From an uncultured archaeon (lineage in GTDB: Archaea; Asgardarchaeota; Lokiarchaeia; Sigyniarchaeales; SOKP01): a stretch of DNA of 50,509 nt. The position numbers were made by a program, and so were the translations under genes. Shown here piece after piece: positions 2,717-31,899 of this stretch. Location: positions 1-50,509 of the forward strand of contig CAZGJX010000015.1 in NCBI GenBank assembly GCA_964525635.1, written 5' to 3'. The notes below the pieces were generated by a model that saw only the letters and a list, made by a program, of their open reading frames with translations, was not told the origin of the DNA and made no database searches. Numbering within the stretch: the stretch's first letter is position 1; every line of letters starts with the position of its first letter.

Positions 2717-2829
2717 CCTCTAAAACATTATAGAATTAGGAAAAGATTAAACTTTTAAGAAATTAAGGATTTCTTAAAATAATTATATATTTGTTTAAAA
2801 TAATTATAATAGATGGTAGGTATATAAAT

Positions 2830-6676: not shown

Positions 6677-6872
6677 TCAGAATTAGGTATATAATGATTA
6701 GATCTTAAATATTAATATTCTATTTCATACTCTCGTAATAAAAATCATTAAATTAATAATGTTATAATTAAAGCTATAGAAAAAATCCGTAAGAACAGAG
6801 TTTCACTTGAAATAGAGAGAAATATAGTGGATAGATTAATATAGAAGAATAAAATATAACTAAATAAGTCAA

Positions 6873-8282
6873 CTATCTAACTAACAAATCTTTTATCATA
6901 TCAGGAATTCTCCTTAAAAGACTAATATTAACCAAGCGTGTAAAATGAAATTTAAAACCATGCATTTTAAGAACTCTTTCAATACCCTGCCAAGGATTCT
7001 TTGAAAATAAGGTTTCTTTATACGCTTTAGATAAGTAATATTTTAACTCTTCTGATGATAGGTGTGGATACTTAATGACAGGATCTGACCAATTAAATTT
7101 GCTCCAATCTTTAGTGAATAATAAATTATCTTTTAAAACCTGCTCCATTACTTTTGTACCCGGAAATGGAGTTAATAAGGAAAAAGTGGGAAGATCGATA
7201 TCTAAAGATTTTGCAATTTTAATAGAAGACTCCAAATCCTCCTTTTTATCTTCAATATTAGCTCCTAAAATAATGTTACCCTGAACAAAATAACCTATAG
7301 CATGTAAGATTTTTAATGCTGATTGGATCTCAGCAAATTTAATTTGCTTATTTAATTTTTCTAATGTTCTATTAGAGAAACTTTCAAATCCCAAAAATAG
7401 ATGAATAAATCCTGCATCAGCCATTTTTTTAAATACTTCGGGATATTTTACAATCATATCAACACGAGCTTGTGTCATAAAATATTTATTAATTCTGTTT
7501 TTTATGATAGCATCACAAAATTCCATTACAAATTTCTTATTTACCATGAAATTATCATCAACTATAAAAATAAGACTAGCTCGATTTTTAATTTCTTTAG
7601 ACTTTAACTCTTTAATTATACTCTTGATTGTACGCTGTCGATATTTTTTTCTAAAGAAATGATGGATACAACAAAAATTACAAGAATATGGACAACCCCG
7701 ACTTGTTTCAATGCAATCGACTGGAAGAGCAAAATAATTATATTTTTTTTTTGCTATTTTTGATCTATAATAACGAGTTGGTATTAGAGTTTTTTTAAAA
7801 TCTATTAATTCACGGTCAAGATTATGGATAATTTTACCATTCTGTTTAAATGATAAACCAAGGATACCAATAGGATTATTTTTTTTAATTAATTCTCGAA
7901 ATGTTTTTTCACCTTCCCCTCTCACAATAAAATCGATTGAATGATATTCTAGTGTTTCATCAGGAACTAAAGTTGGATGCCATCCTCCAACAACAGTTTT
8001 AATATTATAACTTTTGACAATATCAGCGATTTTATAAACATTATATATCTGGGAACTAAATTTGCAACTAATTCCTACATAGTCAGGTTTAAAATCTTCG
8101 ATTATTTTTTTAAATTCTTTAGAGTTCCGTGCTTCTATCCGTTTATCGATTATTTTCACTACTGCTATATCATTTATATATGCGGCAATAGATTCTAATC
8201 CTAATGGAGGAGCAAGAATACTATATTGAGGTACAAATTTATTTACATTAGGACAGTCTGGCTCTACGAGTAAGACACGCAA
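6873..8282 (-). CDS. Cobalamin-dependent (class B) radical SAM protein, BchE/HpnP-like
   Basis: 'APPLGLESIAA', 'VVGGWHPT', 'RGEGE', 'ETSRGCPYSCNFC', 'VDDNF', 'LTPFPGT'. Confidence 0.9.
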   Translation of the reverse strand: MRVLLVEPDCPNVNKFVPQYSILAPPLGLESIAAYINDIAVVKIIDKRIEARNSKEFKKIIEDFKPDYVGISCKFSSQIYNVYKIADIVKSYNIKTVVGGWHPTLVPDETLEYHSIDFIVRGEGEKTFRELIKKNNPIGILGLSFKQNGKIIHNLDRELIDFKKTLIPTRYYRSKIAKKKYNYFALPVDCIETSRGCPYSCNFCCIHHFFRKKYRQRTIKSIIKELKSKEIKNRASLIFIVDDNFMVNKKFVMEFCDAIIKNRINKYFMTQARVDMIVKYPEVFKKMADAGFIHLFLGFESFSNRTLEKLNKQIKFAEIQSALKILHAIGYFVQGNIILGANIEDKKEDLESSIKIAKSLDIDLPTFSLLTPFPGTKVMEQVLKDNLLFTKDWSKFNWSDPVIKYPHLSSEELKYYLSKAYKETLFSKNPWQGIERVLKMHGFKFHFTRLVNISLLRRIPDMIKDLLVR

Positions 8283-8660
8283 ATTAAATTCATCTATTTT
8301 TATAAAATTATATTTTAAAAAAAAAAATTTAAGATAATATTCTTTTAAATATAATGAATTATCTTTTTTTTTTTTATTCTTTTTATGTATTGATTAATTT
8401 AATGTAAAAATTTTTTGGTTATTCATACAGATTTAAAAATTTTTAAACTTTATTTAATTTTATAATATTAGAAGTTATTGTAGTAAAGATAATTATACAA
8501 AGATTAGAAAAAATAATAGAAATGTAAGTAGAATTAAAAATGAACTTAGATTCAGAAAAATTCAAAAAATTCAAACATTCTTGGAAAATATAAGGTCTTT
8601 CTTAATTTTTGATCAGAATAATTAATATTAAAGAAAAAAAAAACCTATAAAAAAGGAAAA

Positions 8661-8666
8661 AGGTGA
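8661..8666 (+). promoter_or_regulatory. Shine-Dalgarno-like AGGTGA before ATT start
   Basis: aggtga-attaa-ATT; the same AAGGTGA motif precedes ATG 11128. Confidence 0.55.
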
Positions 8667-8671
8667 ATTAA

Positions 8672-10078
8672 ATTAATTTTCTTGTAGCAACAAATTGGGA
8701 TTTTAATCTCATAGAAGAGTTAGAAAAATATCCAGTAAATAATTTATATGGTGTCGCAGACTACTCTATTGTGGGTGGGGGGCGTCCTTCTTTTCTATTG
8801 CCAAAAATAACAGAAGAGAAAATACAAGAATATATAAGAGAAGTACATAAGAAAAAAATGAAATTTTCTTATTTATTAAATGCTCCTTGTATGAATAATA
8901 TGGAATATGACTCTCATTATCATAGAGTACTTATTGATTATATTCAATGGATTAGTGATATAAGGGCAGATGGTGTAATTGTAACCATTCCCTTTCTAAT
9001 ACAACTTATAAAAGAACAATTTCCTAATTTAAAAATCCGGGTATCTACAATAGCTCATGTTAACAGTGTAAATAGAGCAAAATTTTATGAAATGTTAGGA
9101 GCAGATGAGATAACTCCAGATGTAATGATTAATCGTGATTTTAAAACATTGGAAAGAATGCAAAAAACTGTTAAGTGCAAGATTGTTCTACTTCTCACTG
9201 ACGGATGTTTATATCAATGTCCTTTTAGATATTATCATTATAATATATTAGGACATGCATCCCAAGCACATCAACAATTTGAACGTAATTATATAGACAC
9301 TTGTATTTTAAATTGTAGTATTATTAAATTCTCTGATCCAGCAGAAGTACTTAAGGCACGATGGGTACGACCTGAGGATTTGGTTCACTATGAATCGATT
9401 GGAATAAATGACTTTAAAATAGCTGGACGTCGAATGTCAACTCCATGGATTGTTAGAGCTGTAAAGGCATTTTCCTCCCGAAAATATGAAGGCAATCTCA
9501 TTGATATAATACAAGGTTTTTCTATGTCGCATGGTGGTTTAGAACAAAAAGACCCCAACATTAAAATAAGTGAAACTCTTGGTAAAGAAGTAAAATCTAA
9601 ATTAATCATTGACAATACAAAATTAGATGGCTTTATAGATTTCTTTAAAAAGCAGAATTGTATAGCAATGTGTAATGATTGTAATTATTGTAATGAATGG
9701 GCAAAAAAAGCTGTTTATTTAGATAAAGAAGAATCTGCATCTTATGTAAAATCAATCAAGAATTATCTTGATGATATTATAACGAGTAGAGAATTTGGGC
9801 TTAATGTAGGGGAATCTGTAAAAAAAAGTAAAATTGGATTAAAATGGAATCTTAAAATTGAAGATATTTTTAACCAGCTAATAAAATTATCGCCTCCTCA
9901 ATTTCAAGGTATTGCAAAAGTGGCGATTTCATCATTAGCCGAAGAAAAAGCAAAAAAAAGAGGATCGCAAGAAGTTAATAATCAAGATATTTTAGAAGCA
10001 TTTATTGAAGGTACTCCTGGACCTTTTCAAGCCGAAATGAGGGAGGGTCTTAAAAAACATGGGCTTATAAAAGAGTAA
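8672..10078 (+). CDS. Peptidase U32-family Fe-S protein (UbiU/TrhP-like putative hydroxylase) with C-terminal DUF2621/PCP_red-like domain
   Basis: 'GGGRP', 'YLLNAPC', 'VSTIAHVNS', 'NRDF', 'GCLYQCPF', 'WVRPEDL', 'FKIAGRR', C-terminal CxxxCxxCxxC. Frame is open upstream of GTG 8771 to ATT 8672 ('INFLVATNWD', matching 'FRLSLACNW' of paralog 20932). Confidence 0.85.
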   Translation: MNFLVATNWDFNLIEELEKYPVNNLYGVADYSIVGGGRPSFLLPKITEEKIQEYIREVHKKKMKFSYLLNAPCMNNMEYDSHYHRVLIDYIQWISDIRADGVIVTIPFLIQLIKEQFPNLKIRVSTIAHVNSVNRAKFYEMLGADEITPDVMINRDFKTLERMQKTVKCKIVLLLTDGCLYQCPFRYYHYNILGHASQAHQQFERNYIDTCILNCSIIKFSDPAEVLKARWVRPEDLVHYESIGINDFKIAGRRMSTPWIVRAVKAFSSRKYEGNLIDIIQGFSMSHGGLEQKDPNIKISETLGKEVKSKLIIDNTKLDGFIDFFKKQNCIAMCNDCNYCNEWAKKAVYLDKEESASYVKSIKNYLDDIITSREFGLNVGESVKKSKIGLKWNLKIEDIFNQLIKLSPPQFQGIAKVAISSLAEEKAKKRGSQEVNNQDILEAFIEGTPGPFQAEMREGLKKHGLIKE

Positions 10079-10285
10079 CTAAAGCTATTTTTATGAATTA
10101 TTCGATAATAATTAAAAGATATCCCATTTTTACTTCAAAAAAAAAGGAAGATTTTTTAACCTTACAATAAATTTAATAATATCTTTATAAAGTAAAAAAT
10201 ATTAATCTTAGTTGCAATTTAAAATATTTATTAATACTTTTGAGAATTTATGAATTCAGAATAATTATTATTAAGAGTATTTAAA

Positions 10286-11017
10286 ATGAAACATAGGAGC
10301 AGACATGAAAAATTAAAGATATATACAATATTGGTTATTACTATTTTATATCTTCCATTTACATTATTTCCTATGTTTTTAAAGGATATTCCCTTTTTCT
10401 CTTCATTAGTTAATAATTATATTATTGCTGGTAGATCATTTTTTATTTCTGATTTACCCTGTATTAATATATTATGGTTTTTGCCAGAAGAATGTCGTAT
10501 CACTTATTTTAGTATAGGGCATCTAATTGATATCTTCATTATAATAAATATTGTTCCTTGTGTTGAAACTACTATTTATCATTATATTGTAAAAGTATGT
10601 AATGAAGAAGAAACTAAAGAATTAAGTTATATGGATATTTATGTTAACAAATCTAGAGAGAAATTTAATTTATTATATTTTAATTTAAATTATGAAATTG
10701 ATATAGAAAATGATCATTCATATGAATCTCATAATATATATATTAAAAATTATCAAAATAACAAGCTTAGACTAAAGGAGTCAAATAATGACTACAATTA
10801 TCAAAAAATAAATGAATATATTCATACCAAAAATCAAAAGAGATTATTTAATAAAATATTTAATTCCAAATTAAAAACTACTTTTAAATTGTTTAATAAT
10901 TCTTTTAATCACTCTTTTTCTAAAAATACTCTGGTATTCCAGAAGAAAAATTATAATCAATATCCCAAAATTAAAACTATTTCTTATAAATATTCTCAAT
11001 GGGAGGGAAAAACATGA
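10286..11017 (+). CDS. Hypothetical protein, N-terminal hydrophobic segments, Asn/Lys-rich C-terminus
   Basis: 243-codon open frame in extremely AT-rich DNA; no recognisable motif. Confidence 0.45.
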   Translation: MKHRSRHEKLKIYTILVITILYLPFTLFPMFLKDIPFFSSLVNNYIIAGRSFFISDLPCINILWFLPEECRITYFSIGHLIDIFIIINIVPCVETTIYHYIVKVCNEEETKELSYMDIYVNKSREKFNLLYFNLNYEIDIENDHSYESHNIYIKNYQNNKLRLKESNNDYNYQKINEYIHTKNQKRLFNKIFNSKLKTTFKLFNNSFNHSFSKNTLVFQKKNYNQYPKIKTISYKYSQWEGKT

Positions 11018-11127
11018 TAAAATTGTGTATATCTTATTTTTTAAGATTGAAATTACAACTGAAAAATAAAGGTAATATACTAACTAAAAATATAAAATTA
11101 AATTATAAAAAATTAAAGGTGAAATAA

Positions 11128-12525
11128 ATGGAATGGAAAGAAGAAATTGAAAATTTATATGAAATAATCACAGATCAGACTCCTGAAGCGTTCCGTTCAT
11201 CAGTCAAAACTATGCTTCGTGAAGCATCTGAAAAAACAGCACGTCTTAGGAATTCTGGATTTGTGAGTAGAGATGATTTACTATCTGCTCTATTTGAAAT
11301 AACTCCTGAAGCATTTCAACCTACAGTTGTTGAAGATTTAAAAAAGATTGGTATTGATACTAATCGGTATATTAAATTGTCAGAAATTAGAAAAAAATAT
11401 TCACGAACATGGGATGAAATTAGTGGAGCATTTTTACCTGGAGTATATCATTTTACCATATATCTAACTGATCGATGCAACCAAAATTGTCTTCATTGTG
11501 CTGCTGCGGTAATGGAGAAACGTCCTGAATTACCCCCGGAAACTTGGATTGAAATTATTGAGGATCTTGAACAAAGCTTACGAAAACGTGGTCGTCGAGG
11601 ATGTTATATATGGTTTGGAGGAGAACCTACTATTCGTAAAGATCTTAAAGATTTAATAAAATATTGCGGTGAAAAGGGCTATTATCAAGCACTTGCAACT
11701 AATGGAATTTTGTTTAATGAAGAACTGGCGAAATTATGTGCAGATGTTAAGATGAGCCATGTTTTTATAAGTTATGATAGTACGGATCCTAAACGGGCTG
11801 CAAAAATTAGAGGACATCCAAAAGCACAAGAAGCGGCAGAAAAAGCCATAAATTTGGCTTCAAAATATGGGCTTTTTATCATTGGTAATGTAACCGCACA
11901 AAAAGAGAACTTCGATGAATTAGAAACCTTACAAAAATATTTTGAATCTAAGGGCGTAATTCCCTTTTACAGACCCCTAATCAAACAACGTTCGGCGGAT
12001 TTAAATTGGGAAGAAATCGGCTTAACTATTGATGAATATCGACAATTCTATGATTTTAAATATAAAAACATTATAGAGACTATCAGAAAAGGAGAAGCAA
12101 CTTCTCTTAATAAATTCTATACATGGGATATGGTACCATTCATGGAGTGTCCTATAAATGATGAGGAAAGGACTGCGATTGAATGGGGTACAGGATGCCA
12201 AGCCTGCCGCTCAATTTCCGGGATTGATACCAATGGAGATGTATTCCCTTGCGATTATCCCTCTGAATTAATCTTAGGCAACATTCTTGAGCAAAGTTGG
12301 GATGAGATTATGGAAACCGAAATGTTCAAAGCTATTAGAGATAGAAAAATAAAAGGGAAATGTGCTACTTGTCATCACCTTGACATGTGTGGTGGTGGTT
12401 GTCGGGTGCATGCTGAGAATGAAACTGGTGATTTTTTAGCGGCTCTCCCGTTTTGTTGGCATCAGAATGATCATAAACATGAAAAAAAAATAACAGAAAA
12501 AAAAGTGATTGAATTACTTGAATAA
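11128..12525 (+). CDS. Radical SAM/SPASM protein (PqqE/AhbC-like) with N-terminal DUF2621/PCP_red-like domain
   Basis: 'CNQNCLHC', 'GGEP', 'ATNG'; SPASM 'CQACR..GDVFPC..CATCHHLDMCGGGCR..CW'. Confidence 0.9.
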   Translation: MEWKEEIENLYEIITDQTPEAFRSSVKTMLREASEKTARLRNSGFVSRDDLLSALFEITPEAFQPTVVEDLKKIGIDTNRYIKLSEIRKKYSRTWDEISGAFLPGVYHFTIYLTDRCNQNCLHCAAAVMEKRPELPPETWIEIIEDLEQSLRKRGRRGCYIWFGGEPTIRKDLKDLIKYCGEKGYYQALATNGILFNEELAKLCADVKMSHVFISYDSTDPKRAAKIRGHPKAQEAAEKAINLASKYGLFIIGNVTAQKENFDELETLQKYFESKGVIPFYRPLIKQRSADLNWEEIGLTIDEYRQFYDFKYKNIIETIRKGEATSLNKFYTWDMVPFMECPINDEERTAIEWGTGCQACRSISGIDTNGDVFPCDYPSELILGNILEQSWDEIMETEMFKAIRDRKIKGKCATCHHLDMCGGGCRVHAENETGDFLAALPFCWHQNDHKHEKKITEKKVIELLE

Positions 12526-12565
12526 TTGAGTAATTTAATTAAAATAGATTGAAGGTTTGATATAT

Positions 12566-13966
12566 ATGGAATGGGAAAAGAAAACTGAAGAATTATTTGC
12601 GAGAATTGTAGAGAAAATGCCAGAAGGATTTCGTCCTTCAGTAAAACCATTGATTATAGAAGCAGCTGAAAAAAGATGCGTTGAGCGAAACGAATCTTAT
12701 ATTAATGAATCAGATGTAATTACAGGAATTTTTGATATTATTCCTGAAGCATTTAAATCTATAATGGTTGAAGATTTAAAATCTCTGAGTATTGATGTTG
12801 AACGATATATTGAGCTTAAGGAAATCAGAGATCGACTTAAATTATCATGGGAAAAATTGGAAAAAGCATTTCATCCGGGTAATATTCATTTTGCGATGTA
12901 TATTACCGATAGATGTAATATGAAGTGTATACATTGTGCCGCAGATGATCAAATACCTCGACAGGAGTTATCAAAAGAGCAATGGTGCCAGATAATGGAT
13001 AATATAGAATCTGGACTTAGATCCCAGGGTAGACATGCATGTTTCATTTGGTTTGGGGGAGAACCAACTCTACGAGAAGATATTGGGGATTTAATGAGCC
13101 ATTGCAAAGAAAAAGGATATTATCATGCTATTATTACTAATGGCGTTGAATTTGATGATAAATTCGCTAAAATGTGCAAAGAAAATGATTTAAGTCACGT
13201 ATTTGTAAGTTTTGACAGTGCCAATCCTAAGAAAAATGATCAATTACGCGGATATCCAAATTCATTAGAATACACCAAAAAAGCTATAGATAGTTGTTTG
13301 AAATATGGATTATTTGTATGTGCTTCTATTACTATTATGAAACAGAATATTGATGAATTGGAAGAACTTAATAATTTATCGTTAAAATGGGGAGCTCAAC
13401 CTTTTTTTAGACCAGTTGTTAAACAAAATCGCGCTGCAGAATATTGGGATGAAATTGGTTTGAATAAAGAAGAATATAAGAGGTTATATGATTATAAATA
13501 TAAACATGCTATTCAAAAAATTAGGCAAGGTGAAGCAGGGATCCTACCGGCTTATGAAATATATGAGATGATGCCCTTTATGAATTGCTTAAGAAATGAT
13601 AAGGAAATAACAGCGCTTGAATGGGGTGTAGGATGTTTAGCATGCAGAACGATGATGGGCGTTGGTGTAGATGGAACGCTATTTCCTACGGGATATCCTA
13701 CAAAATTAACTCTTGGTCATGGATTAAAGGACAAATTTGAAGATATATTAAATTCACAACTCTATAAAGATATTCGTGACAGAAAAAAAATTAAAGGAAA
13801 ATGCGCATCTTGTCATCATCTGAAATATTGCGGAGGGGGGTGTCGCGTCACTGCAGAATTTATAACTGGAGATTTTTTTGGTTCATTTCCTTTTTGTTGG
13901 CATGAAAATGACCATGAACATGAAGTTGAGACTAATAAAAAGAAGGAAATTGAATTACTTGAATGA
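12566..13966 (+). CDS. Radical SAM/SPASM protein, tandem paralog of 11128, with N-terminal DUF2621/PCP_red-like domain
   Basis: 'CNMKCIHC', 'WFGGEPT', 'CASCHHLKYCGGGCR'; starts 'MEWEKK' like 'MEWKEE'. Confidence 0.9.
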   Translation: MEWEKKTEELFARIVEKMPEGFRPSVKPLIIEAAEKRCVERNESYINESDVITGIFDIIPEAFKSIMVEDLKSLSIDVERYIELKEIRDRLKLSWEKLEKAFHPGNIHFAMYITDRCNMKCIHCAADDQIPRQELSKEQWCQIMDNIESGLRSQGRHACFIWFGGEPTLREDIGDLMSHCKEKGYYHAIITNGVEFDDKFAKMCKENDLSHVFVSFDSANPKKNDQLRGYPNSLEYTKKAIDSCLKYGLFVCASITIMKQNIDELEELNNLSLKWGAQPFFRPVVKQNRAAEYWDEIGLNKEEYKRLYDYKYKHAIQKIRQGEAGILPAYEIYEMMPFMNCLRNDKEITALEWGVGCLACRTMMGVGVDGTLFPTGYPTKLTLGHGLKDKFEDILNSQLYKDIRDRKKIKGKCASCHHLKYCGGGCRVTAEFITGDFFGSFPFCWHENDHEHEVETNKKKEIELLE

Positions 13967-14000
13967 TAAAGGAGATTGCTAAAGCATAGGGATGATAATA

Positions 14001-15416
14001 ATGCGAGTATTAATAATATCTGGAAGTCGAGAGATAGTACATGTAATGGTTTCACCCATAGGTGAAGCTTATCTAGCATCATATCTTCAATCACAAGGAC
14101 ATGAAGTTTTATTATTAGATCTAACTCTAAGTAATAATTTTAGAAATGATATTATAAAAGCTATTGATAATTTCAATCCTGAAGTGATAGGTCTTTCTAT
14201 TCGTAATATAGATTCAACAACATACCCTGGAAATTTATTTTTTTATTTACCTTTTAAAAATATTTTTAATTATATAAAAGAAAATATAGAACCTGAAATA
14301 CCCCTAATCTTAGGTGGGGCTGGGTTTTCAATATTCTCAGAAGAAATACTTAGAGATTTAAATCATGATATTGGAATCGTTGGAGAAGGAGAATATGCTT
14401 TTAATGAATTATTAAAATATATTGAAAAAGATAAAGATCCTCGAAAAATAGATAGAGGTATATGTTTTATAGATAAAAAAGGGAGATATCATCAAAAACC
14501 AACATGGCATATTAATAATTTAGATGATTTACCAAATCCTACAAGAGAATTGATGGATAATAATAATTATCTAATTGATCCAATAGATAAGGAAGGTAAT
14601 TTTTGGGGGAATATTCAAACTAAGCGTGGTTGCTCGAAAAACTGCATTTATTGTAGTTATCGATATATTGAAGGCCCTAAAGTTCGATATCGATCCCCAG
14701 AAAAAATAGCTGAAGAACTAGATTTAATGGTAAATAATTTTGGAATCAAAAATGTTTTCATTGTAGATAGTCTGCTCAATTTAAATTATAATCACTTAAA
14801 AAATACTTGTCATGAAATTATTAACCATAAAATTGATTTTAATTGGGGAGCTAATTATGCTCCAAGTAGTCAATATTTAGATTTATTACCCCTTATGAAA
14901 GAAAGTGGTGCAACTCATCTAGCAACGGGTATGGAATCCTTATCTGAAGATATATTAAAAAATATGAATAAAGATAGAATACCTAATGAGTCAATTCTAA
15001 CTTCTGAAAAGTGTATTGATCTAGAAATTGAACAATTAATCCATATAATTGTTGGAGGTCCTGGAGAAACTTCTGAAACAGTTAGAGCTTCTTTCGATCG
15101 ATTAGAAACTATTAGAAATTATAGAGGAAATATATGGCAAGGAGATGGAGATGTAATTATTTTCTTGGGAATGAGAATATATCCTCATACGCCTCTTCAG
15201 AAAATTGCTGAGAAAGATAAGGTGATTTCTAAAGGACAAAATTTACTTAAACCAACATTTTACATTTCTCCACAAATTAAAGAAGTAGATCTTTTTAGTT
15301 TAGTAAGAGAATATTGTGAAGTAAATCCAAGATGGATGGCTCCAGGATTAGGCTTAAATAATCCAGATGGCTTTGACGAAATGAGTCAAATCCAGTTTGC
15401 TCTATATCAAAAATAA
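14001..15416 (+). CDS. Cobalamin-dependent radical SAM protein, TsrM-like / lipid-biosynthesis B12-rSAM type (putative C-methyltransferase)
   Basis: 'LLDLT', 'IGLSIRNID', 'LGGAGFSIF', 'IQTKRGCSKNCIYC', 'GGPGET', 'GMRIYPHTPL', 'PTFYISP'. Confidence 0.82.
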   Translation: MRVLIISGSREIVHVMVSPIGEAYLASYLQSQGHEVLLLDLTLSNNFRNDIIKAIDNFNPEVIGLSIRNIDSTTYPGNLFFYLPFKNIFNYIKENIEPEIPLILGGAGFSIFSEEILRDLNHDIGIVGEGEYAFNELLKYIEKDKDPRKIDRGICFIDKKGRYHQKPTWHINNLDDLPNPTRELMDNNNYLIDPIDKEGNFWGNIQTKRGCSKNCIYCSYRYIEGPKVRYRSPEKIAEELDLMVNNFGIKNVFIVDSLLNLNYNHLKNTCHEIINHKIDFNWGANYAPSSQYLDLLPLMKESGATHLATGMESLSEDILKNMNKDRIPNESILTSEKCIDLEIEQLIHIIVGGPGETSETVRASFDRLETIRNYRGNIWQGDGDVIIFLGMRIYPHTPLQKIAEKDKVISKGQNLLKPTFYISPQIKEVDLFSLVREYCEVNPRWMAPGLGLNNPDGFDEMSQIQFALYQK

Positions 15417-15471
15417 AAATAAAAAACAAAAAAAAAAAACATTAAAAAATAGTAAAAATGAGGGAATTTTT

Positions 15472-16974
15472 ATGAGTAAAAAAGCAAGAAGCGGATTACC
15501 ATTTGGTAAAGTTACTCCGTTAGAAATTATAGAGAAAATTGGAAAAGATGGATTATCTGGAGGAATTGAAGATGTCTGTCTCTTTCCTACATATAGTTGT
15601 AATCTTAATTGTTATATGTGTCATGTACAACATGTACGCGATAAGGATAACAATTATATATCAATGGATGATTGGAAGGCAGCTTTTAAAAATCTAAATG
15701 TATCTAAAATGTTTCACCTAGGGGGAGAACCTTTTGTAAGAGAAGATATGATGGATTTAATTGAATTTTTTGATTCCAAAGGGATTAATCAAATTCTTTC
15801 CACCAATGGTCAAAATATTACTGAGTCAACTGCTAAAAGGCTAGCTGCATTGAAGAATTTAGCTTGTATACAAGTATCTCTTAATGGTACAGAAGAAATT
15901 GATGGAAAAATAAGAGGATCTCCTCATTCATATAGAAGAACTGTAGAGGGTATAAAACTATTGAAAAAAGCTGGTATACAAACATGGATTCATGCCGTTA
16001 TTTTAAATGAAAATATCAATGATCTAGTAAATATAGTGAAACTTGGTACAGAATTAAAGGTGGATATGATTAATTATCTTTTTGGTCAGGTAATGTCTGA
16101 GCAAGATGCAGAAGAAACAAGAGCTTCTATTAAAAAGTGGACAGGTGAAGATGTAAATGTTGGAGGATATATAGGAGAAATAAATTATTCTGAAGAAGAA
16201 TTAGTGAATAGTATTAACGCTGTAAAAGAAGAAGCGAAGAAAACGGGAATTCAAGTAATGTTTTTCCCTAGAATTTTTGGAGAGCATCCAGAAATATATT
16301 GGCGAGGTACTTTACTTGAACAAGAGAGGCCTATTTGTCAAATGACATTAATGCCCCCCCTCACACCTATAATTGGTCCTGAAGGGGATGTTGTTGCGTG
16401 TTGTATTATTGATAAGAGTTTTGGCAATATTAAAGAAAAAAGTCTTGAAGAAATTTGGGATTCTGAGACCGTTCGTAATTTTAGGAAAGGATTGATTAAT
16501 GATAAATTAATGGCAGTATGTAAACGATGTCCAAGTGGAGATTTAATAAAGGTTGATGCAAAGAAAGATACATCCTTATCGAATAAAGAAGATTGGAACT
16601 CTTATTTATCATTATTAACTAAAGAACTTAATAATTTATCTGAGTTACAACCGATATTAGAAAAAGTTTCTCCTATTATATTTCAATATCAAATTACTGA
16701 TCAACCAAGTTTCAATTATTGGCATTACTTTAAAAAAGATGGTGTTAGTTTGGGTTTAGGTGAAATTGATGATGATGATGTCTCAAAATTAATCCATAAA
16801 ACTGATTTTGAGACATTAAAGAGTGTAAATGCTGGTATAAACAATCCAATCCAAGCTACGATGGAGGGAACTTATGAAGTTACTGGAGACATGACTAAAT
16901 TAATGGCTTGTGCTCCACTTATTCCAGTAACAGCAAAAGCTCATAATGTTGTAATTAAAGATTTTTTAAAATAA
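15472..16974 (+). CDS. Radical SAM/twitch-type protein fused to C-terminal SCP2 lipid-binding domain
   Basis: 'CNLNCYMC', 'LGGEP', 'STNG'; 'C...GDVVACC..GNIKEKSLEEIW...CKRC'; C-term 'DFETLKSVNAGINNPIQATMEGTYEVTGDMTKLM' (SCP2 pattern). Confidence 0.85.
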   Translation: MSKKARSGLPFGKVTPLEIIEKIGKDGLSGGIEDVCLFPTYSCNLNCYMCHVQHVRDKDNNYISMDDWKAAFKNLNVSKMFHLGGEPFVREDMMDLIEFFDSKGINQILSTNGQNITESTAKRLAALKNLACIQVSLNGTEEIDGKIRGSPHSYRRTVEGIKLLKKAGIQTWIHAVILNENINDLVNIVKLGTELKVDMINYLFGQVMSEQDAEETRASIKKWTGEDVNVGGYIGEINYSEEELVNSINAVKEEAKKTGIQVMFFPRIFGEHPEIYWRGTLLEQERPICQMTLMPPLTPIIGPEGDVVACCIIDKSFGNIKEKSLEEIWDSETVRNFRKGLINDKLMAVCKRCPSGDLIKVDAKKDTSLSNKEDWNSYLSLLTKELNNLSELQPILEKVSPIIFQYQITDQPSFNYWHYFKKDGVSLGLGEIDDDDVSKLIHKTDFETLKSVNAGINNPIQATMEGTYEVTGDMTKLMACAPLIPVTAKAHNVVIKDFLK

Positions 16975-17005
16975 AAAGGAGAAATAAAAAAAAGAGCTAT
17001 AAATT

Positions 17006-18514
17006 ATGAATGAAAAACAAGTTGGATGTGACGTATCTCTACGAGAAGCAATGCCCCTTGGAAAGGATATACCATTAAATGTAATAAAGCAAATAATTGA
17101 AGATGGTCTTTCTGGGGAATTTAGTGATGTATGCTTTTATGCAAGTTTCAACTGTAATTTAAATTGTTATATGTGCCTTATAAAACATATGAAAGGTCGA
17201 AAAATAACTCCCATGTCTATGGAGCAAATAAAGGAGGGATTTAAAGATGCTAAAGTCTTATTTCACCTTGGAGGAGAACCATGGGTTATGAGTAATATGA
17301 TGGAAATGATAGAATATTTCGATGCTAATGGTGTTAATCAAATAATGTCCACAAATGGCACTAAAATTACAAAAGAAATCGCTGAGAAATTAGCTGGATT
17401 AAAACATTTTGTTAATATACAAGTCTCATTGAACGCATCAAATGGAATAGATGGCAAAATTAGGGGATGGCCAAAATCTTTCGAAAAAACTGTTGAGGGT
17501 ATAAAGATTCTTGTTGATGCAGGCTTATCTACATGGATACATTGCACAATTGTAAATGAAAATATTAACGATTTAGCAAATGTAGTTAAACTTGGTGCAG
17601 AGCTAGGAGTTAAAGCAGTCAATTTCATCTTTGCACATATAGTTAGTGAGGAAGAAATTAAGGCTTCTAAAGAGCTAATGAAGAAATGGATTGGAGAAGA
17701 AGTTGAAATAGGTGGATATGTGGGAGAATTAACATATTCTGAAGAAGAATTGATAAACAGTATTAATGCAGCAAAAGAAGAAGGAAAAAAACATGGAATT
17801 ACTGTGATGTTCTTTTCAAAGTTATTTGGTGATAAGCCTGAAATATATTGGCGAGGAACGTTATTAAAGCAAGAACGACCGATTTGCCAATTAACTTTAA
17901 TGCCCCCAATGACACCTAATATTGGACCAGATGGTTCAGTATATAACTGCCCATATATAGTCAAAAGCTTTGGAAACATTACTGAAATGCCCCTTAAAGA
18001 GATTTGGGATTCTGATTCAATTCGTGCTTTTCGGAAAGGAATGATAAAGGACAAGTTATTACCTATATGTAGACGTTGCCCATGTAGTGATATGGTTGAT
18101 TTATCTTTATCCAAAGAACATGAATTAACAGATATAGTAAAATGGAAGATATATCTTGAAAGATTAACTAAAGAATTGAATAATATGTCTGAAGTTCCAC
18201 CAATTTTGAATAGCATTGAACCTACTATTTTCCAATATCACCTTAATGATCATCCAGAGTTGAATTTTTGGCATGCCTTTGATAAAAATGGTATTCGGAT
18301 AGGAATGGGTGAAAATACACAGGATAGTGACTTTATTAAGCTTATCCATAAAGCTGATTTTGAGATTGTGAGAAAGGTAAATTCTGGCGAACAGAATCCT
18401 GTCCAAGCAACTATGGCAGGACTTTATATAGTTGATGGAGATATGGCTAAATTAATGGCTTGTGCTCCAATTTTACCTTTGCAAGTAAAAGCTCATGAAA
18501 AAGTAATAAAATAA
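17006..18514 (+). CDS. Radical SAM/twitch-SCP2 fusion, tandem paralog of 15472
   Basis: 'CNLNCYMC'; near-identical 'PEIYWRGTLL.QERPICQ.TLMPP'; SCP2 'NPVQATMAGLYIVDGDMAKLM'. Confidence 0.85.
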   Translation: MNEKQVGCDVSLREAMPLGKDIPLNVIKQIIEDGLSGEFSDVCFYASFNCNLNCYMCLIKHMKGRKITPMSMEQIKEGFKDAKVLFHLGGEPWVMSNMMEMIEYFDANGVNQIMSTNGTKITKEIAEKLAGLKHFVNIQVSLNASNGIDGKIRGWPKSFEKTVEGIKILVDAGLSTWIHCTIVNENINDLANVVKLGAELGVKAVNFIFAHIVSEEEIKASKELMKKWIGEEVEIGGYVGELTYSEEELINSINAAKEEGKKHGITVMFFSKLFGDKPEIYWRGTLLKQERPICQLTLMPPMTPNIGPDGSVYNCPYIVKSFGNITEMPLKEIWDSDSIRAFRKGMIKDKLLPICRRCPCSDMVDLSLSKEHELTDIVKWKIYLERLTKELNNMSEVPPILNSIEPTIFQYHLNDHPELNFWHAFDKNGIRIGMGENTQDSDFIKLIHKADFEIVRKVNSGEQNPVQATMAGLYIVDGDMAKLMACAPILPLQVKAHEKVIK

Positions 18515-18571
18515 TTAATTAAATAATATAAAAAAGAGAAAATAAAATATAAGTTAAGAGAGAAAATCAAA

Positions 18572-19744
18572 ATGAAATGGAAATCTGAAATTAAACAACT
18601 TTTTGAGAATGTGGTCTCAAATATTCCTGAAATGGTAAGACCAGCTGTAAAACCTACACTTTTTGAAGCTGCAGAAAAAAAATGTATGGAGAGAAATGGA
18701 AAAGAAGTAGCTGAAGTAGATTTAGTAGTAGCGTTGTTTGAAGTGACACCACCAACTTTTCAACCAACTATGATTGAAGATCTAAAAAAAGTTGGGGTTG
18801 AATATGATAAATACCTAGCAAAAGTGGAATCTAATTTTAAGTGTAATACTGATCTTAATCAGATGATAAAGGATATATCAACGATTTGTGATGTTACTGG
18901 AGTAAAATGTGATAATGAAGCAATCTGGAAAGCTTTCAATGCTTATGAAAAATTTTTCAAAGGAGCTCCATTATCAATTAGAACGACGACTAAACCCGTT
19001 GAAAAAAGGGATGTAGCAGTAAGATATGTAGAATTTTTTGTACCTCATTATCCAGATCCTTATACAACAGCTATCAATGAAGGATTAATTAAGAAGGATG
19101 GACACGCTATCCATAAGATGATAATAGAGGTAATAAACACGTTTGACATAATGGGATATGGTGTAGATGTAGATGCGAGTAATGGATTATCAAAGATTTG
19201 GCCATTTATAGTACCTGGATCAATTGATCCAATCTATTCAATGAAGTCATACCCAAAAAGTATGAAAAAATATCAAGAATACTTTAATAAGCATGGACTA
19301 ACAGCTTTTAGTTTATTTGCATTTGATTTCCTTCATAATACAGTGAACATCTATTTCATGCTTAAAAAACCATCCAAATCTACTTATGAAAATTGTATTG
19401 CTCTTGTAGAGGATTTAGGATTTAAACCCGACTCCAAAGAGGTTATGGAAGCTTGTTGTGAAGCTGCCCATCTAAATTATACATTTAATTGGGATACAGA
19501 AAAAATCGAGCGTGTATGTTTTGGGATAACATGTCAAGATGCTAAAAAGATTCCAGTACATCTACATCCATTGATAGAAGAATTTGTTGAAAAAACACCA
19601 CTCCAAAGTGATTCAAATAAATTTATCTGGGGAGTAACCTTCTCCCAAAACGGTCGCTATTATAAGATTGAAAACGATTATAATGGAACAATGGTCGATT
19701 TCTTAGAAATGGGTTGTAAAGCGGGTCTTGATAAATTTAACTAA
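18572..19744 (+). CDS. Soluble ABBA aromatic prenyltransferase (NphB/CloQ, PTase_Orf2-like) with N-terminal DUF2621/PCP_red-like domain
   Basis: Co-linear with remembered NphB/CloQ motifs: 'DPYTTAINEGL', 'YGVDVDASNGLSKIWPF', 'FNKHGL', 'FDFLHNTVNIYF', 'LVEDLGF', 'YTFNWDTEKIERVCFG', 'WGVTFSQNGRYYKIENDY'. Confidence 0.87.
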   Translation: MKWKSEIKQLFENVVSNIPEMVRPAVKPTLFEAAEKKCMERNGKEVAEVDLVVALFEVTPPTFQPTMIEDLKKVGVEYDKYLAKVESNFKCNTDLNQMIKDISTICDVTGVKCDNEAIWKAFNAYEKFFKGAPLSIRTTTKPVEKRDVAVRYVEFFVPHYPDPYTTAINEGLIKKDGHAIHKMIIEVINTFDIMGYGVDVDASNGLSKIWPFIVPGSIDPIYSMKSYPKSMKKYQEYFNKHGLTAFSLFAFDFLHNTVNIYFMLKKPSKSTYENCIALVEDLGFKPDSKEVMEACCEAAHLNYTFNWDTEKIERVCFGITCQDAKKIPVHLHPLIEEFVEKTPLQSDSNKFIWGVTFSQNGRYYKIENDYNGTMVDFLEMGCKAGLDKFN

Positions 19745-19756
19745 TTTTTTTTTTTT
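19745..19756 (+). terminator. Oligo-T tract, possible archaeal terminator inside the cluster
   Basis: T run immediately after the TAA of the prenyltransferase. Confidence 0.35.
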
Positions 19757-19787
19757 AATTTTAAAAATAAATAAAGTGTATCTTAAA

Positions 19788-20939
19788 ATGCAGATAATAA
19801 TCGATGGAGACTATAATAAAGAATTAATTTCTCAAATTAAAAGGAAAGATTTACCAGTTTCACATATTATTGTTCATGTTCCTCAAAATCCAATTGGAAA
19901 TAGTTCAATTTTTCTGCCAGAAATCCTTCCTTCTCTAAAGGAATTTAGAGATTATACTAAGATTATTCAAGATAATGGAATAATTCCCATAGCAGGTATT
20001 GATTCAACATGTCAAGGAAATTTGGAAGCCCATGCTAAACAAAATAAAGCAATTAATATATTATTTGAAAACCTACATGAATTAGAATACTCTAATTACC
20101 TAATATCATCCCCAAATAATGCAGCATTTATAAATGCAAATTTTCCTGAAGATAAAATTTACTTATCTTATTCTCAATATATCACATCATTAAATCGTGC
20201 AAAAATTTTTTTTGAATTGGGAGTAGACAATATTATAATTCACCCTGACATAATTAGGAATTTTAATATATTAAAGAATTTCTTGAAATTAAAGCAAAAT
20301 CTAAATAATAATGAAAAAATTGATTATATTCTTCCATTAAATCTTGGGTGCAATTGGGGATGTATTCATTGGTATGAACATCATAATCTTCAAAGTCATC
20401 GAACAATAAAGTCATCTATTTTACCAAATCAAAATAATATTTCTGACATTGAGGATGAGTTTGATTATCCTATCCTTGATTGTTGGAGGAAGCGTCTTAA
20501 ACAACCTTCTGAAATTCTTAAAGCAGGATGGATATCCCCATTTAATATTCAATTATATCATGATTTGGGGTATGAAAAATTCGTACTTTTTACCAGTAGA
20601 TTTTCTACGGAGAAGATATTGAATATCATTAAATCATATATTGATAAATTACATATGGATGATTTTAAAGAATTTCTGAATATTCCTCAACCTTATGGGG
20701 ATTATTGGTCAGGAGAAGAAATTCATAATTCAATGATCTTTCTTGATCCAAATAATATCAGAGAATTTTGCGATAATTTCCCCTATAATACTCATTATCC
20801 ATTTGAGAAGCAAATTAATGAATATTGTAATAAATATATTGATAAATTTAATAATAAACACATTAAAGAACGAGAAGAAATCCTCAAAATAATAATGGAA
20901 AAGAAAGAAAAACTATATAAAGGTGTATTTAATGGCTGA
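19788..20939 (+). CDS. Divergent U32-family protein (possibly non-catalytic partner)
   Basis: Aligns with the other U32s ('ITSLNRAK', 'IRNF', 'LGCNWGC', 'EILKAGWISP') but lacks GxGRP and FKIxGRR; ATG 19788 preferred. Confidence 0.72.
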   Translation: MQIIIDGDYNKELISQIKRKDLPVSHIIVHVPQNPIGNSSIFLPEILPSLKEFRDYTKIIQDNGIIPIAGIDSTCQGNLEAHAKQNKAINILFENLHELEYSNYLISSPNNAAFINANFPEDKIYLSYSQYITSLNRAKIFFELGVDNIIIHPDIIRNFNILKNFLKLKQNLNNNEKIDYILPLNLGCNWGCIHWYEHHNLQSHRTIKSSILPNQNNISDIEDEFDYPILDCWRKRLKQPSEILKAGWISPFNIQLYHDLGYEKFVLFTSRFSTEKILNIIKSYIDKLHMDDFKEFLNIPQPYGDYWSGEEIHNSMIFLDPNNIREFCDNFPYNTHYPFEKQINEYCNKYIDKFNNKHIKEREEILKIIMEKKEKLYKGVFNG

Positions 20940-22992
20940 AAAATTTCGCTTATCATTAGCATGTAATTGGAAGATTGACTTATTGAATCTAATAGATCTG
21001 GATCAATCGTTAAAAGATAATATTCATGATTTATATGGTACTTATGATTCTAGTTTTACTGGATCAGGGAGACCCTTTTTTTTAATGGCAAAGAGAGAGA
21101 GATTAGAGGTAGAAACATACATAAATAAAGTTCATGATTTAGGATTGAAATTCACTTGGTTATGGAATGGTATGTGTCAAGGATATTACAAATTTAATTC
21201 TGAACATCAAACTAAAGCCCTAGAGGAATTAGATTGGTTAGGAGATTTAAGTGTAGAATATTTAACAATAACAGATCCTTACCTTGCCGAGTTTGCAAAA
21301 AATCATAAACCAAAATTAAAATTGAAAGTTTCAGTTATTTCTGAAGTAAATTCATTATCACGTGCTTTAGATTGGCAAGAGATTATTGGTGATGAAGGTG
21401 TTTTAACATTATCTATAATGATAAATCGTAATTTTCCTCTCTTAGAAGAGATTAGGAATAGTGTAAAATGTGATATTGAACTACTTACAAATGATTGTTG
21501 CCTGAATGATTGTCCTTTTAGATTTTTTCATTATACAGAATGCTCACACGCTAGCCAAACTCATGATATACTAGAAGGCTATTATAATGATTGGTCAACA
21601 ATTGCTTGTCAAAATCAAAAATGTTTCAATCCAGAACAGATAATTATGTCTAAATGGATTCAACCATCAGATCTGGATAAGTATATTAATATTGGAATAA
21701 ATTATTTTAAAATTTCAGGAAGGAGATATGGAACTGATTGGTTATATAAGGCATTAAAAGCATATAGTAAAAAATCATTTAATGGGAATCTCGGTGATAT
21801 TTTTAATGGGTATTCTTTTGTTTCAGATCCTTTAATACTAGCTGGAAATCAATTTTCTGAATTTTCTATTAAACAAGAAAAAATGGAAGTAGATGCTGAT
21901 AATCAAAGTATAATGTTAAGTGTTCCAGATTTTAATGCAGTGTTAAAAGGTGATGAATTAAATGATTTTATATCTAATATACCTTTCCAAGGAACTAAAT
22001 GTACTGAAATTTGTGGTATTAAATGTCACTACTGTAATGATTATGCAAAGAAAGCTTATTATGTTCCTCCTGATAAATTATCAGAGTCATATAGAAATTA
22101 TATGGCATTTCTTTATGATTATCTAAATTTAGGAGAAATGTTTCTTTCAAAAGAAGAAAGAACTCTTAAAATTCCAATTAGAGAGATAGAATCAGATACT
22201 TATTTTGGAATCGCTTGGTTATCTGAAGCAGAAACTTTTTTAGAGGAGGTTATGATTATAATTCCTGAATCAATGCAACTTGCCGCTAAAAAAGGTATTG
22301 GATTCACAGCAGAACGAACTGCAGAAAAACAAGGTTTAAACCATATTGATCTAAATTTACTTATCTCTATACTTATTCAATTAGTACCTCAACCTTTTAA
22401 ACATGATCTTCTCGATTTCTTGGTAGAAAAAGACATCGATTTATCACATTTTATCAATGAAGAAGATATAGAATACATGAAATCTTTACCATATGGTACT
22501 GATTTAATGGCTCAAAAAGCAAAACAAAAAAGATTAGTAGAGCCTAATTCAAATTTAAATATAAATAATTTAAATATACAAAAAAATAAGGAAGTGAAAT
22601 TAAATATGGATACAAAAGAAGAATGGGAGGCGTACCTTACACGCTTTATGAAAGCCTATAATGAATTACCAGATTTATCTTCATTATTAAAACCTATCTC
22701 CCCTTTGATATTTCAGTACAATCTTTCAGATAAACCTGAAATGAATTATTGGCAATTTGTTGAAGAGGATAAAATGAGATGGGGAATGGGAAATTATGAT
22801 GGAAATGATGCTCCCAAGATTATCCACAAAACTGACTTTGAGACATTGATAAAAGTTAATTCTGGTGAATCAGATCCAATTCAAGCTACTATGGCAGGTA
22901 ATTATACTGTTGAAGGAGATGTAACTAAACTTATGGCATGTGCTGCTTTACTCCCTCTTAACGCAAAAGCCCATAATAAGGCTATAGAATGA
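20932..22992 (+). CDS. U32-family Fe-S protein + DUF2621/PCP_red-like domain + SCP2 domain (triple fusion)
   Basis: 'GSGRP', 'CLNDCPF', 'FKISGRR', 'CTEICGIKCHYC'; middle 'AWLSEAETFLEE...IPESMQLAAKK...VPQPFKHDL'; C-term 'DPIQATMAGNYTVEGDVTKLM'. Overlaps the upstream stop. Confidence 0.85.
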   Translation: MAEKFRLSLACNWKIDLLNLIDLDQSLKDNIHDLYGTYDSSFTGSGRPFFLMAKRERLEVETYINKVHDLGLKFTWLWNGMCQGYYKFNSEHQTKALEELDWLGDLSVEYLTITDPYLAEFAKNHKPKLKLKVSVISEVNSLSRALDWQEIIGDEGVLTLSIMINRNFPLLEEIRNSVKCDIELLTNDCCLNDCPFRFFHYTECSHASQTHDILEGYYNDWSTIACQNQKCFNPEQIIMSKWIQPSDLDKYINIGINYFKISGRRYGTDWLYKALKAYSKKSFNGNLGDIFNGYSFVSDPLILAGNQFSEFSIKQEKMEVDADNQSIMLSVPDFNAVLKGDELNDFISNIPFQGTKCTEICGIKCHYCNDYAKKAYYVPPDKLSESYRNYMAFLYDYLNLGEMFLSKEERTLKIPIREIESDTYFGIAWLSEAETFLEEVMIIIPESMQLAAKKGIGFTAERTAEKQGLNHIDLNLLISILIQLVPQPFKHDLLDFLVEKDIDLSHFINEEDIEYMKSLPYGTDLMAQKAKQKRLVEPNSNLNINNLNIQKNKEVKLNMDTKEEWEAYLTRFMKAYNELPDLSSLLKPISPLIFQYNLSDKPEMNYWQFVEEDKMRWGMGNYDGNDAPKIIHKTDFETLIKVNSGESDPIQATMAGNYTVEGDVTKLMACAALLPLNAKAHNKAIE

Positions 22993-23109: not shown

Positions 23110-23940
23110 AAAATGGTCTCTATAAGAATTATATAGAGTAAAAATCTTTTTTTATTAAATAAAAAAACTATAAATAAAAATAGTGAGGATAAAAAAAATG
23201 TTTTGTCCAAGTTGTGGTGAAGAGTTAAGAGAAGATAATCAAAGATTTTGCCACACTTGTGGAATTAATCTTCTTAGTAATATAGATGGCCCTCAACAAT
23301 ATACTAAAGTTATTCAAAAAACACCAAATTCAATTTCAAAATCAAATCTAAAAAATATTGAAATAATAAAAGGTCAACAAGGACACCATATTAAAATAGA
23401 ACGAATAGGACCATATTCAAAAAAGAGTTTAGCTTATTCAATTGTGTCTTTGGGATTAACTGCTTTGGCAATTGTTTTCATTTCGACAGGATTTGTTTAC
23501 AGTTTAATACGTAATAATATCCAATTACTTATCATACCAAGAACGATATTTGTAATTTCAATTAATATTGTAGGTTTGGTTTTTGGAATTCAATCTAAAA
23601 AGAATAGTTTAAAAGCAGGACGATTTGAAGAAATAAATGCTGTAGAGAAAGTAGGGAGTGTATTATGTATTTTTGGGATAGTAGCTAATATTATTGGTAT
23701 TATAATAGGTTTTTTAATATACCCTGCATCTATGATTATCTTGAATAATAATATACAATTTATTTATTAATTTTAATATTTTAAAAAATTCTTTTTTCTT
23801 ATTTTATCAATAAAATCTAGGTTTTTTGTAAGAATCTACTTTTTAATAATAAATGGTCTATATTAAAATTATATACACTATATCTTTATTTTTATTAAAA
23901 AAAAAAAAATAAATAAAATTAGTTAGGAGGAAAGAAATCT
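23110..23940 (+). repeat. Duplicated upstream regions of the two tandem zinc-ribbon genes (about 23110-23197 and 23851-23940)
   Basis: 'aaatggtctctataagaattatatagag...tttattaaa...taaataaaaatagtgagg' vs 'aaatggtctatattaaaattatatacac...tttattaaa...taaataaaattagttagg'. Confidence 0.65.
23198..23770 (+). CDS. Zinc-ribbon membrane protein, paralog 2
   Basis: 'MFCPSCGEEL..FCHTCG', 'YSKKSLAYSI', 'EKVGSV', 3 TM. Confidence 0.8.
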   Translation: MFCPSCGEELREDNQRFCHTCGINLLSNIDGPQQYTKVIQKTPNSISKSNLKNIEIIKGQQGHHIKIERIGPYSKKSLAYSIVSLGLTALAIVFISTGFVYSLIRNNIQLLIIPRTIFVISINIVGLVFGIQSKKNSLKAGRFEEINAVEKVGSVLCIFGIVANIIGIIIGFLIYPASMIILNNNIQFIY

Positions 23941-31835: not shown

Positions 31836-31899
31836 TTTTCTTATACCTCCTATATATTATTAATTTAAAGTGAATTGAAAAAAAATAAAAGAAAATTAA

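Follow-up and report, generated by a model that had tools for sequence, protein, structure and literature searches.

A DUF2621/PCP_red-like helical module shared by five enzymes of an Asgard archaeal operon is a candidate recruitment adaptor

Shared recognition and docking domains are already known, for example the RRE and the docking domains of polyketide synthases (PKSs). Here we describe a case in which the fold used in this way, and its use in a pathway for a small lipid-like molecule, would be new. The case comes from an uncultured member of the Asgard archaea (Lokiarchaeia, Sigyniarchaeales), the closest prokaryotic relatives of eukaryotes, and lies in a 50,509-nucleotide stretch of DNA that we call the window (contig CAZGJX010000015.1 of assembly GCA_964525635.1). 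One operon in this window encodes five copies of a helical module of 80-85 residues, hereafter the tag, on enzymes of three unrelated families: U32 proteins, radical SAM (rSAM)/SPASM enzymes and an ABBA prenyltransferase. We propose that the tag is a candidate protein-recruitment adaptor for these enzymes.

The closest described parallel in logic is the PqqD-like RRE, which is likewise one small non-catalytic domain, free or fused at either end to unrelated enzymes of one pathway. The original prediction had drawn this comparison, and it holds as an analogy of logic only: the RRE consists of a winged helix with a three-stranded sheet, whereas the tag is predicted to be all-helical, with five helices and a two-residue beta-bridge. 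The nearest relatives by sequence are two Pfam families. DUF2621 (PF11084) corresponds to the tag in profile region and predicted fold but is free-standing, whereas here the module is fused to enzymes and present four to five times per operon. PCP_red (PF08369), the C-terminal domain of BchB/ChlB and BchZ, has a W...P..R...E..A motif in common with the first 60 or so tag residues and appears to share their fold, but covers only the first half of the tag. A literature search returned no paper that mentions DUF2621 and nothing on what PCP_red does or on this Asgard operon, and the papers on dark-operative protochlorophyllide oxidoreductase that we examined give no role for the PCP_red domain. 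AAA+ lids and the histone fold resemble the tag in a helix-strand-helix motif, but there is no ATPase context here. As a pathway, a close parallel is the Ubi metabolon with UbiT, UbiU and UbiV, in which U32 proteins likewise act with an SCP2 lipid-binding domain independently of oxygen (PMC6747719); the notion of several soluble enzymes assembled about a lipid carrier is also shared. Prenylation in the Ubi system is carried out by UbiA, whereas the Asgard operon encodes a soluble ABBA enzyme. To our knowledge, Ubi proteins carry no DUF2621-like tag.

Profile matches place the five tag copies of the window as follows.

9839-10075, forward strand: copy 1, at the C-terminus of the U32-family protein U32a (profile E 7.9e-31; DUF2621 positions 56-127, E 3e-4)
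11128-11397, forward strand: copy 2, at the N-terminus of rSAM/SPASM enzyme 1 (profile match; AlphaFold2 model with predicted local distance difference test (pLDDT) score 87 and five helices)
12566-12835, forward strand: copy 3, at the N-terminus of rSAM/SPASM enzyme 2 (profile match; DUF2621, E 3.7e-6)
18572-18841, forward strand: copy 4, at the N-terminus of the ABBA prenyltransferase (profile and DUF2621 matches)
22210-22473, forward strand: copy 5, between the U32 core and the SCP2 domain of a U32-tag-SCP2 fusion (profile and DUF2621 matches)

All five were thus found where the original prediction had put them, on enzymes of three folds, and the consensus proposed at that time agrees with our alignment, in which W3, P19, K27, E35, P60, F63 and L71 are invariant. 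The copies also align significantly, as had been anticipated. Pairwise BLASTP gave 21-48% identity with E values of 1.8e-29 to 4.7e-7, calculated for a database of these five sequences only. As a stricter test, the rSAM, U32a and prenyltransferase classes of the tag from 27 other genomes were used to build a profile, which was run against the 9,902 open frames of at least 60 residues in this genome. Although its own class had been left out of the profile, the divergent U32-SCP2 copy was recovered at E 4.3e-8 and its paralogue, in a second cluster on contig C76, at E 1.3e-11; nothing beyond the two tag clusters was found among the 9,902 frames up to E 10.

The sequence matches and models indicate that the tag belongs to the DUF2621/PCP_red superfamily, at scores below the Pfam thresholds. 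Each isolated copy matches DUF2621 within positions 56-138 of its 139 (E 3.7e-6 to 1.3e-3) with 19.2-27.4 bits, and the window copies overall score 16-27.4 bits, against a gathering score of 27.7 bits. In line with this, free-standing bacterial DUF2621 clusters were the nearest relatives in a language-model search (scores 0.94-0.95) and have the same predicted fold, with TM scores of 0.84-0.90 and a root-mean-square deviation (rmsd) of 1.5-1.6 A over 84-86 residues, models being compared on both sides. Among the window copies, only that of the U32-SCP2 fusion matches PCP_red (13.4 bits, E 0.08; cut-off 32.5 bits), whereas some tag-family proteins match this profile directly (P0033, E 2.2e-6; P0110, E 3.4e-4). 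Tag residues 1-63 superpose on the predicted PCP_red domain of a BchZ cluster with a TM score of 0.64 and an rmsd of 1.4 A; the Z scores to PCP_red domains solved by NMR (6.2 to 2L09 and 5.4 to 2KRU, over 57-60 residues) lie in the same range as those to unrelated helical bundles.

The isolated tag was modelled by AlphaFold2 as a five-helix bundle (pLDDT 87) with a two-residue bridge joining residues 2-3 and 45-46, which suggests that it folds autonomously. Its halves resemble a diverged repeat of two helix-P-x-x-F-helix units of about 40 residues each (hhalign probability 84%, E 7.7e-6). From these alignments the tag appears to be an internal duplication in all copies, of which the Pfam model of PCP_red spans the first unit only. 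Among solved structures the top matches are AAA+ lids, namely BchI (1g8p, Z 8.1 over 71 residues) and MCM and ORC proteins (Z 7-7.7), and with a 133-row profile the A..A..R...V...D...A stretch weakly matched an archaeal histone and the Lon lid. Such scores are typical of small helical bundles and reflect a helix-strand-helix resemblance rather than proof of homology. The structural matches to histones were set aside at an rmsd of 6-8 A. Sequence searches of the PDB with a 5-row and the 133-row profile gave nothing below E 0.04, and Foldseek found no PDB match at E <=0.001. When the broad family is taken as a whole, near-invariance is limited to W3, P19 and P60, and each class has its own strongly conserved signature. 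The four Asgard tag classes are all acidic, with mean net charges of -2 to -6, and contain no basic amphipathic helix.

Both the models and the profile boundaries indicate that the tag is a discrete, non-catalytic addition to each enzyme, as the original prediction of a separate module implied. The solved ABBA prenyltransferases AmbP3, FamD1, AmbP1, NphB, EpzP and CloQ (Z 31-38) cover only residues 91-387 of the modelled enzyme, from their own first residues onwards, and in the rSAM proteins the match to the AhbD/NirJ profiles does not start until about residue 113. In the full-length model of the prenyltransferase the linker at residues 81-90 has a pLDDT of 61, and although pLDDT averages 90, the predicted TM score (pTM) reaches only 0.77. 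This low linker confidence together with the low pTM suggests, weakly and indirectly, that the tag is tethered to the barrel rather than packed on it.

The tagged enzymes are encoded together with untagged ones in the following genes.

5171-6676, forward strand: upstream B12-binding radical SAM enzyme (B12-rSAM), the operon head in 16 of the related loci (profile matches, locus comparison)
8672-10078, forward strand: U32a, U32 family, Fe-S hydroxylase type, with tag copy 1 (Pfam Peptidase_U32)
10286-11017, forward strand: hyp243, a small conserved membrane protein, untagged (no Pfam or NCBIfam match)
11128-12525, forward strand: rSAM/SPASM enzyme 1, tagged (nearest profiles AhbD/NirJ, far under their cut-offs)
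12557-13966, forward strand: rSAM/SPASM enzyme 2, tagged (nearest profiles AhbD/NirJ, far under their cut-offs)
13992-15416, forward strand: B12-rSAM, untagged (profile matches)
15397-16974, forward strand: rSAM/SPASM-SCP2 fusion without a tag (profile matches)
17006-18514, forward strand: second rSAM/SPASM-SCP2 fusion without a tag (profile matches)
18572-19744, forward strand: ABBA (Orf2-type) aromatic prenyltransferase, tagged (PTase_Orf2, E 5.5e-55)
19728-20939, forward strand: divergent third U32-like protein, untagged (phmmer link to U32 cores)
20923-22992, forward strand: U32-tag-SCP2 triple fusion, SCP2 part at 22606-22989 (profile matches)
Contig C76, locus coordinates 6544-15944, reverse strand: second cluster with two tag-prenyltransferases, two tag-rSAM/SPASM enzymes, U32-tag-SCP2, a U32-like protein and a hyp243 paralogue

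Two B12-rSAM genes lie directly upstream of the gene run at 8672-22992, and no NCBIfam equivalog was found for the operon enzymes. The third U32-like gene, whose paralogue on contig C76 does match Peptidase_U32, overlaps with its 3' end the start of the U32-tag-SCP2 gene. Judged from the sequence, U32a probably starts at the ATT at 8672 rather than at the GTG at 8771, because the open frame reaches 33 codons 5' of the first ATG, GTG or TTG and the residues that these encode (I-N-F-L-V-A-T-N-W) can be aligned with the beginning of orthologous proteins (M-R-I-S-L-A-C-N-W); the ATT is preceded by GGTGA. The true start of rSAM/SPASM enzyme 2 is probably the ATG at 12566.

Relatives of the operon occur in 27 loci of other Promethearchaeota (Asgard), where the same enzymes carry the tag. 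Wherever the available sequence suffices, these loci share the order B12-rSAM, hyp243, two tag-rSAM genes, usually a second B12-rSAM, and tag-prenyltransferase, followed by either a free SCP2 protein of 130 residues or the pair U32-like and U32-tag-SCP2, and by U32a-tag. The N-termini of the free SCP2 orthologues coincide with the beginning of the SCP2 part in the triple fusion of the window, and we therefore regard the latter as a U32-tag protein joined to the carrier. In the tag tree each of three classes, those of the prenyltransferase, U32a and U32-SCP2, forms a clade of its own (support 0.98-1.0), with identities of 56-71% within a class against 19-40% between classes; this grouping by host enzyme argues that the fusions are old, under selection and not homogenised within genomes. 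Judged by the same alignments, the tag is about as conserved as the catalytic parts. Its distribution in the sampled phylum is patchy (26 of 301 genomes; besides this genome, 22 of 68 in the same family and none of three in the same genus), and tag-bearing Asgard genomes mostly have four to five copies (range 1-10). The genome studied here has ten, five of them in the paralogous C76 cluster, which runs tag-prenyltransferase, tag-rSAM/SPASM, U32-tag-SCP2, U32-like, tag-prenyltransferase 2, tag-rSAM/SPASM 2 and hyp243 paralogue; neither a B12-rSAM nor a U32a gene was found in the available sequence of this cluster.

The original prediction had called for a survey of what else carries the domain. 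A profile search of 1.84 billion representative proteins returned only 251 clusters at E <=0.001, and architectures were surveyed among the best 150 of these. Most are free-standing proteins of 85-100 residues, the commonest form in bacteria, and the Atlas neighbours of these free-standing tags are likewise bacterial (Omnitrophota, Bacteroidota, Acidobacteriota, Bacillota). The longer proteins mostly repeat the families of the operon, that is, U32, rSAM/SPASM, prenyltransferase and SCP2. A structure comparison adds a 321-member, mostly bacterial U32 cluster with the same C-terminal domain (TM score 0.89). The tag stands N- or C-terminal to the prenyltransferase depending on the lineage (P0011, P0018), and tandem tag pairs have several independent origins. 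Tandem tags are joined to a NuoE-like 2Fe-2S ferredoxin in a 39-member cluster; SCP2-tag and SCP2-tag-tag proteins occur without any enzyme (P0040, P0090), and P0151 (U32-tag-SCP2-tag-tag) holds three copies in one protein. Further fusions are HpaB-tag, tag-methyltransferase, tag-PNPOx-like, U32-tag-SCP2(x3)-tag and one of a VOC/glyoxalase protein to the tag. As for genomic context, HpaB, Amidohydro_2, a methyltransferase and a pair of HemN-type rSAMs are encoded in two high-GC clusters, each with a single tag, which is free in one of them and fused to the methyltransferase in the other. Additional tailoring enzymes accompany these genes: one of the clusters has a cupin, a P450 and a FAD-dependent hydroxylase, the other two cupins and a TENA/haem-oxygenase-like protein. 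One free tag copy also occurs in a type II PKS operon that includes a B12-rSAM.

The metagenomic contig that encodes P0083 has a related cluster composed of U32, B12-rSAM, rSAM/SPASM, a 999-residue rSAM/SPASM-prenyltransferase fusion, B12-rSAM and U32a-tag. It directly adjoins an archaeal-type shikimate operon that extends through chorismate synthase to chorismate mutase. This neighbour would fit a chorismate-derived aromatic substrate and a prephenate-dependent U32 chemistry, the link of U32 proteins to prephenate being known from UbiU/V and TrhP.

We tentatively favour the view that the tag is a tethered protein-recruitment adaptor, a reading that we consider quite possible without calling it probable. 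According to this model, an autonomous helical adaptor of about 80 residues on short, probably flexible linkers would be carried by enzymes that act on one hydrophobic intermediate, here two rSAM/SPASM enzymes, a soluble prenyltransferase and U32 proteins of the hydroxylase type, and would gather them with each other or at a common partner. In other lineages the tag would recruit an SCP2 lipid carrier and a ferredoxin in the same manner, and the intermediates of an oxygen-independent prenylated-aromatic pathway would be handed on without escape. What the data show is the tag itself, its character as an addition, its conservation and the variety of its fusions; that the tag binds a protein, which partner it binds and what chemistry the pathway performs are all points that we infer. 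The occurrence of the tag on catalysts, a lipid carrier and an electron carrier, at either end and singly or in tandem, has the signature of an adaptor, and the recurrent theme of its contexts is the tailoring of hydrophobic aromatics. Recruitment is favoured over a substrate pocket because an SCP2 lipid carrier or a ferredoxin has no obvious need of one. Moreover, the classes share only the fold residues W3, P19 and P60 and each keeps its own surface, which would suit an interaction module. The weak matches to AAA+ lids and histones, both of them contact modules, we also count on this side.

Several observations weigh against this view. The commonest bacterial form is a free protein of 85-95 residues that must act alone, three bacterial clusters show a single tag within the 10-20 kb around it that we considered, and one U32-tag gene of the 321-member type stands alone amid unrelated polysaccharide genes. 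At least two tagged proteins are thus not present wherever the tag occurs, and these single-copy clusters, solitary genes and common free forms imply that docking of tag to tag is not a general rule. The acidity of all four Asgard classes rules out charge complementarity between them, the PCP_red domain on BchB and BchZ, which act on hydrophobic tetrapyrroles, would equally fit a role in substrate handling, and the pTM argument for tethering is an indirect one taken from a model. A complex prediction for SCP2 with the tag scored 0.00, which, being made without controls, counts neither for nor against binding. The original prediction of an assembly tag therefore survives in part: the added-on character, the conserved hosts and the fusions to helper proteins (SCP2, NuoE-like) fit recruitment better than a pocket, whereas an obligatory tag-to-tag metabolon is at odds with the single-copy clusters, the solitary U32-tag genes and the one three-copy protein. 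In its widest form, the recruitment model would have the tag gather the radical SAM, U32 and prenyltransferase enzymes, with an SCP2 carrier at the centre, into a metabolon that is soluble, works independently of oxygen and builds an undescribed prenylated aromatic, quinone-like lipid; we regard this extension as possible but doubtful.

A serious alternative, which we rate as possible though less likely, is that the tag handles substrate. It would bind a hydrophobic aromatic or prenyl intermediate, or lipid-loaded SCP2, as a mobile lid or a hand-over chaperone, and the free copies would be small carriers. All informative contexts indeed concern hydrophobic-aromatic chemistry (ABBA prenyltransferase, U32, HpaB, Amidohydro_2, methyltransferase, HemN-type rSAM, P450, type II PKS, VOC), free-standing forms of 85-95 residues are the commonest, and the tag is fused to SCP2 repeatedly and in many orders. 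If its helix at residues 398-420 belongs to the PCP_red domain, Rhodobacter BchB would be a precedent, as it touches protochlorophyllide in trans via this helix (PMC12022308). However, the classes have no conserved pocket-like set of residues in common, the tag is small, at about 80 residues, and acidic, and its fusions to ferredoxin and SCP2 are hard to explain as substrate binding.

Alternatively, the copies may have no shared partner, each being a structural, solubility or homo-oligomerisation element of its own enzyme, acquired by descent within a U32 subfamily and copied afterwards. The 321-member U32 cluster with the same C-terminal domain, its solitary member among unrelated genes and the strong class-specific signatures all agree with this. 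We nevertheless consider it improbable, as it hardly explains why the same element sits on four to five enzymes of one operon and on carriers and ferredoxins elsewhere, or why within this genome it is confined to two clusters.

A role like that of the RRE itself, in which the tag would bind a peptide handle such as the C-terminal tail of hyp243, serving as an anchor or a precursor, has in our judgement only a slim chance of being correct. In its favour, rSAM/SPASM and B12-rSAM enzymes are typical peptide maturases, and 21 of 28 related loci (the 27 Asgard loci and the C76 cluster) have hyp243, a protein of 243 residues, within the operon, several of the others being short contig fragments. It matches no family in Pfam or NCBIfam and nothing in the language-model atlas. 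Its N-terminal 120 or so residues are hydrophobic and conserved, with the motifs SG.S.F.P and G.L.D, and its tail is variable, except that 12 of 22 orthologues share a terminal motif of about 25 residues that closes with Q-x-E-G 0-3 residues before the stop. Hyp243 may act as an anchor or provide a peptide handle, and its tail is the one precursor candidate in the cluster. The motif has no counterpart in the other 10, however, including the paralogue in the second cluster. As a universal docking or precursor peptide it was rejected, its profile having recovered only the 12 training sequences. The predicted fold of the tag is also all-helical and thus unlike a PqqD-type RRE, and a small lipid-like substrate rather than a peptide is what the SCP2 fusions and the prenyltransferase of Orf2 type suggest.

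Least likely of all is that the tag brings soluble enzymes to the membrane that holds their substrate: the substrate is probably lipophilic, given the SCP2 domains and the prenyltransferase, and the operon includes a membrane protein, but the tags are acidic and have no basic amphipathic helix, free-standing copies would be purposeless, and SCP2 carriers suggest that lipids are handled in soluble form.

With regard to the setting of the operon, the genome comprises 4.45 Mb in 245 contigs, of which the window is contig C15, with a GC content of about 24-35%. Close relatives of its genes are all in metagenome-assembled genomes of Promethearchaeota (Asgard), and the sequencing runs that match the stretch are salt-marsh DNA metagenomes only, no RNA dataset being among those listed. 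The window also encodes L10e and a WD40 protein; a Rag/Gtr-type GTPase and Hsp90 are encoded on another contig. The frame for ribosomal protein L16/L10e (2791-3462, forward strand, 223 residues) matches its family from residue 36, and may in reality be shorter than when called from the first TTG.

Three paralogous zinc-ribbon proteins, each starting MFCP.CG.EL, flank the cluster on both sides (4545-5117, 23183-23770 and 23941-24513, all forward strand). Relatives of the third of these, of a GT2 glycosyltransferase (24589-25356, reverse strand) and of a LuxE-like protein (28100-29338) are each found near the operon in six to seven other Asgard loci, the hexapeptide transferase at 25451-26545 in three, and the first zinc-ribbon protein in none. 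Because flanking genes recur in this way, the functional unit may be larger than the operon. The LuxE-type acyl-protein synthetase (28100-29338, forward strand) lies 5 kb downstream of the operon, and in protein P0052 (949 residues) a LuxC acyl-CoA reductase is fused to tag-rSAM/SPASM; together these hint that the pathway has a branch concerned with fatty acyls or aldehydes. Elsewhere in the window, an ArdC-N-like protein adjoins a DNA N6/N4 methyltransferase (30897-32664, reverse strand), possibly the remnant of a mobile element, and a leucine-rich-repeat protein of 1,613 residues is encoded at 35848-40689 (reverse strand).

If the tag does recruit enzymes across the whole pathway, it would do for a small-molecule pathway what the RRE does in peptide pathways and would provide the first functional hypothesis for DUF2621 and for PCP_red, the tail domain of BchB and BchZ in chlorophyll synthesis. 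The tag is rare, and since it is small and self-folding, binding tests should be straightforward. We know of no quinone-like or prenylated aromatic lipid described in Asgard archaea, and the tag would give a genomic handle on the parts of an undescribed anaerobic pathway in these organisms and could reveal how enzymes in soluble form work together on a greasy substrate.

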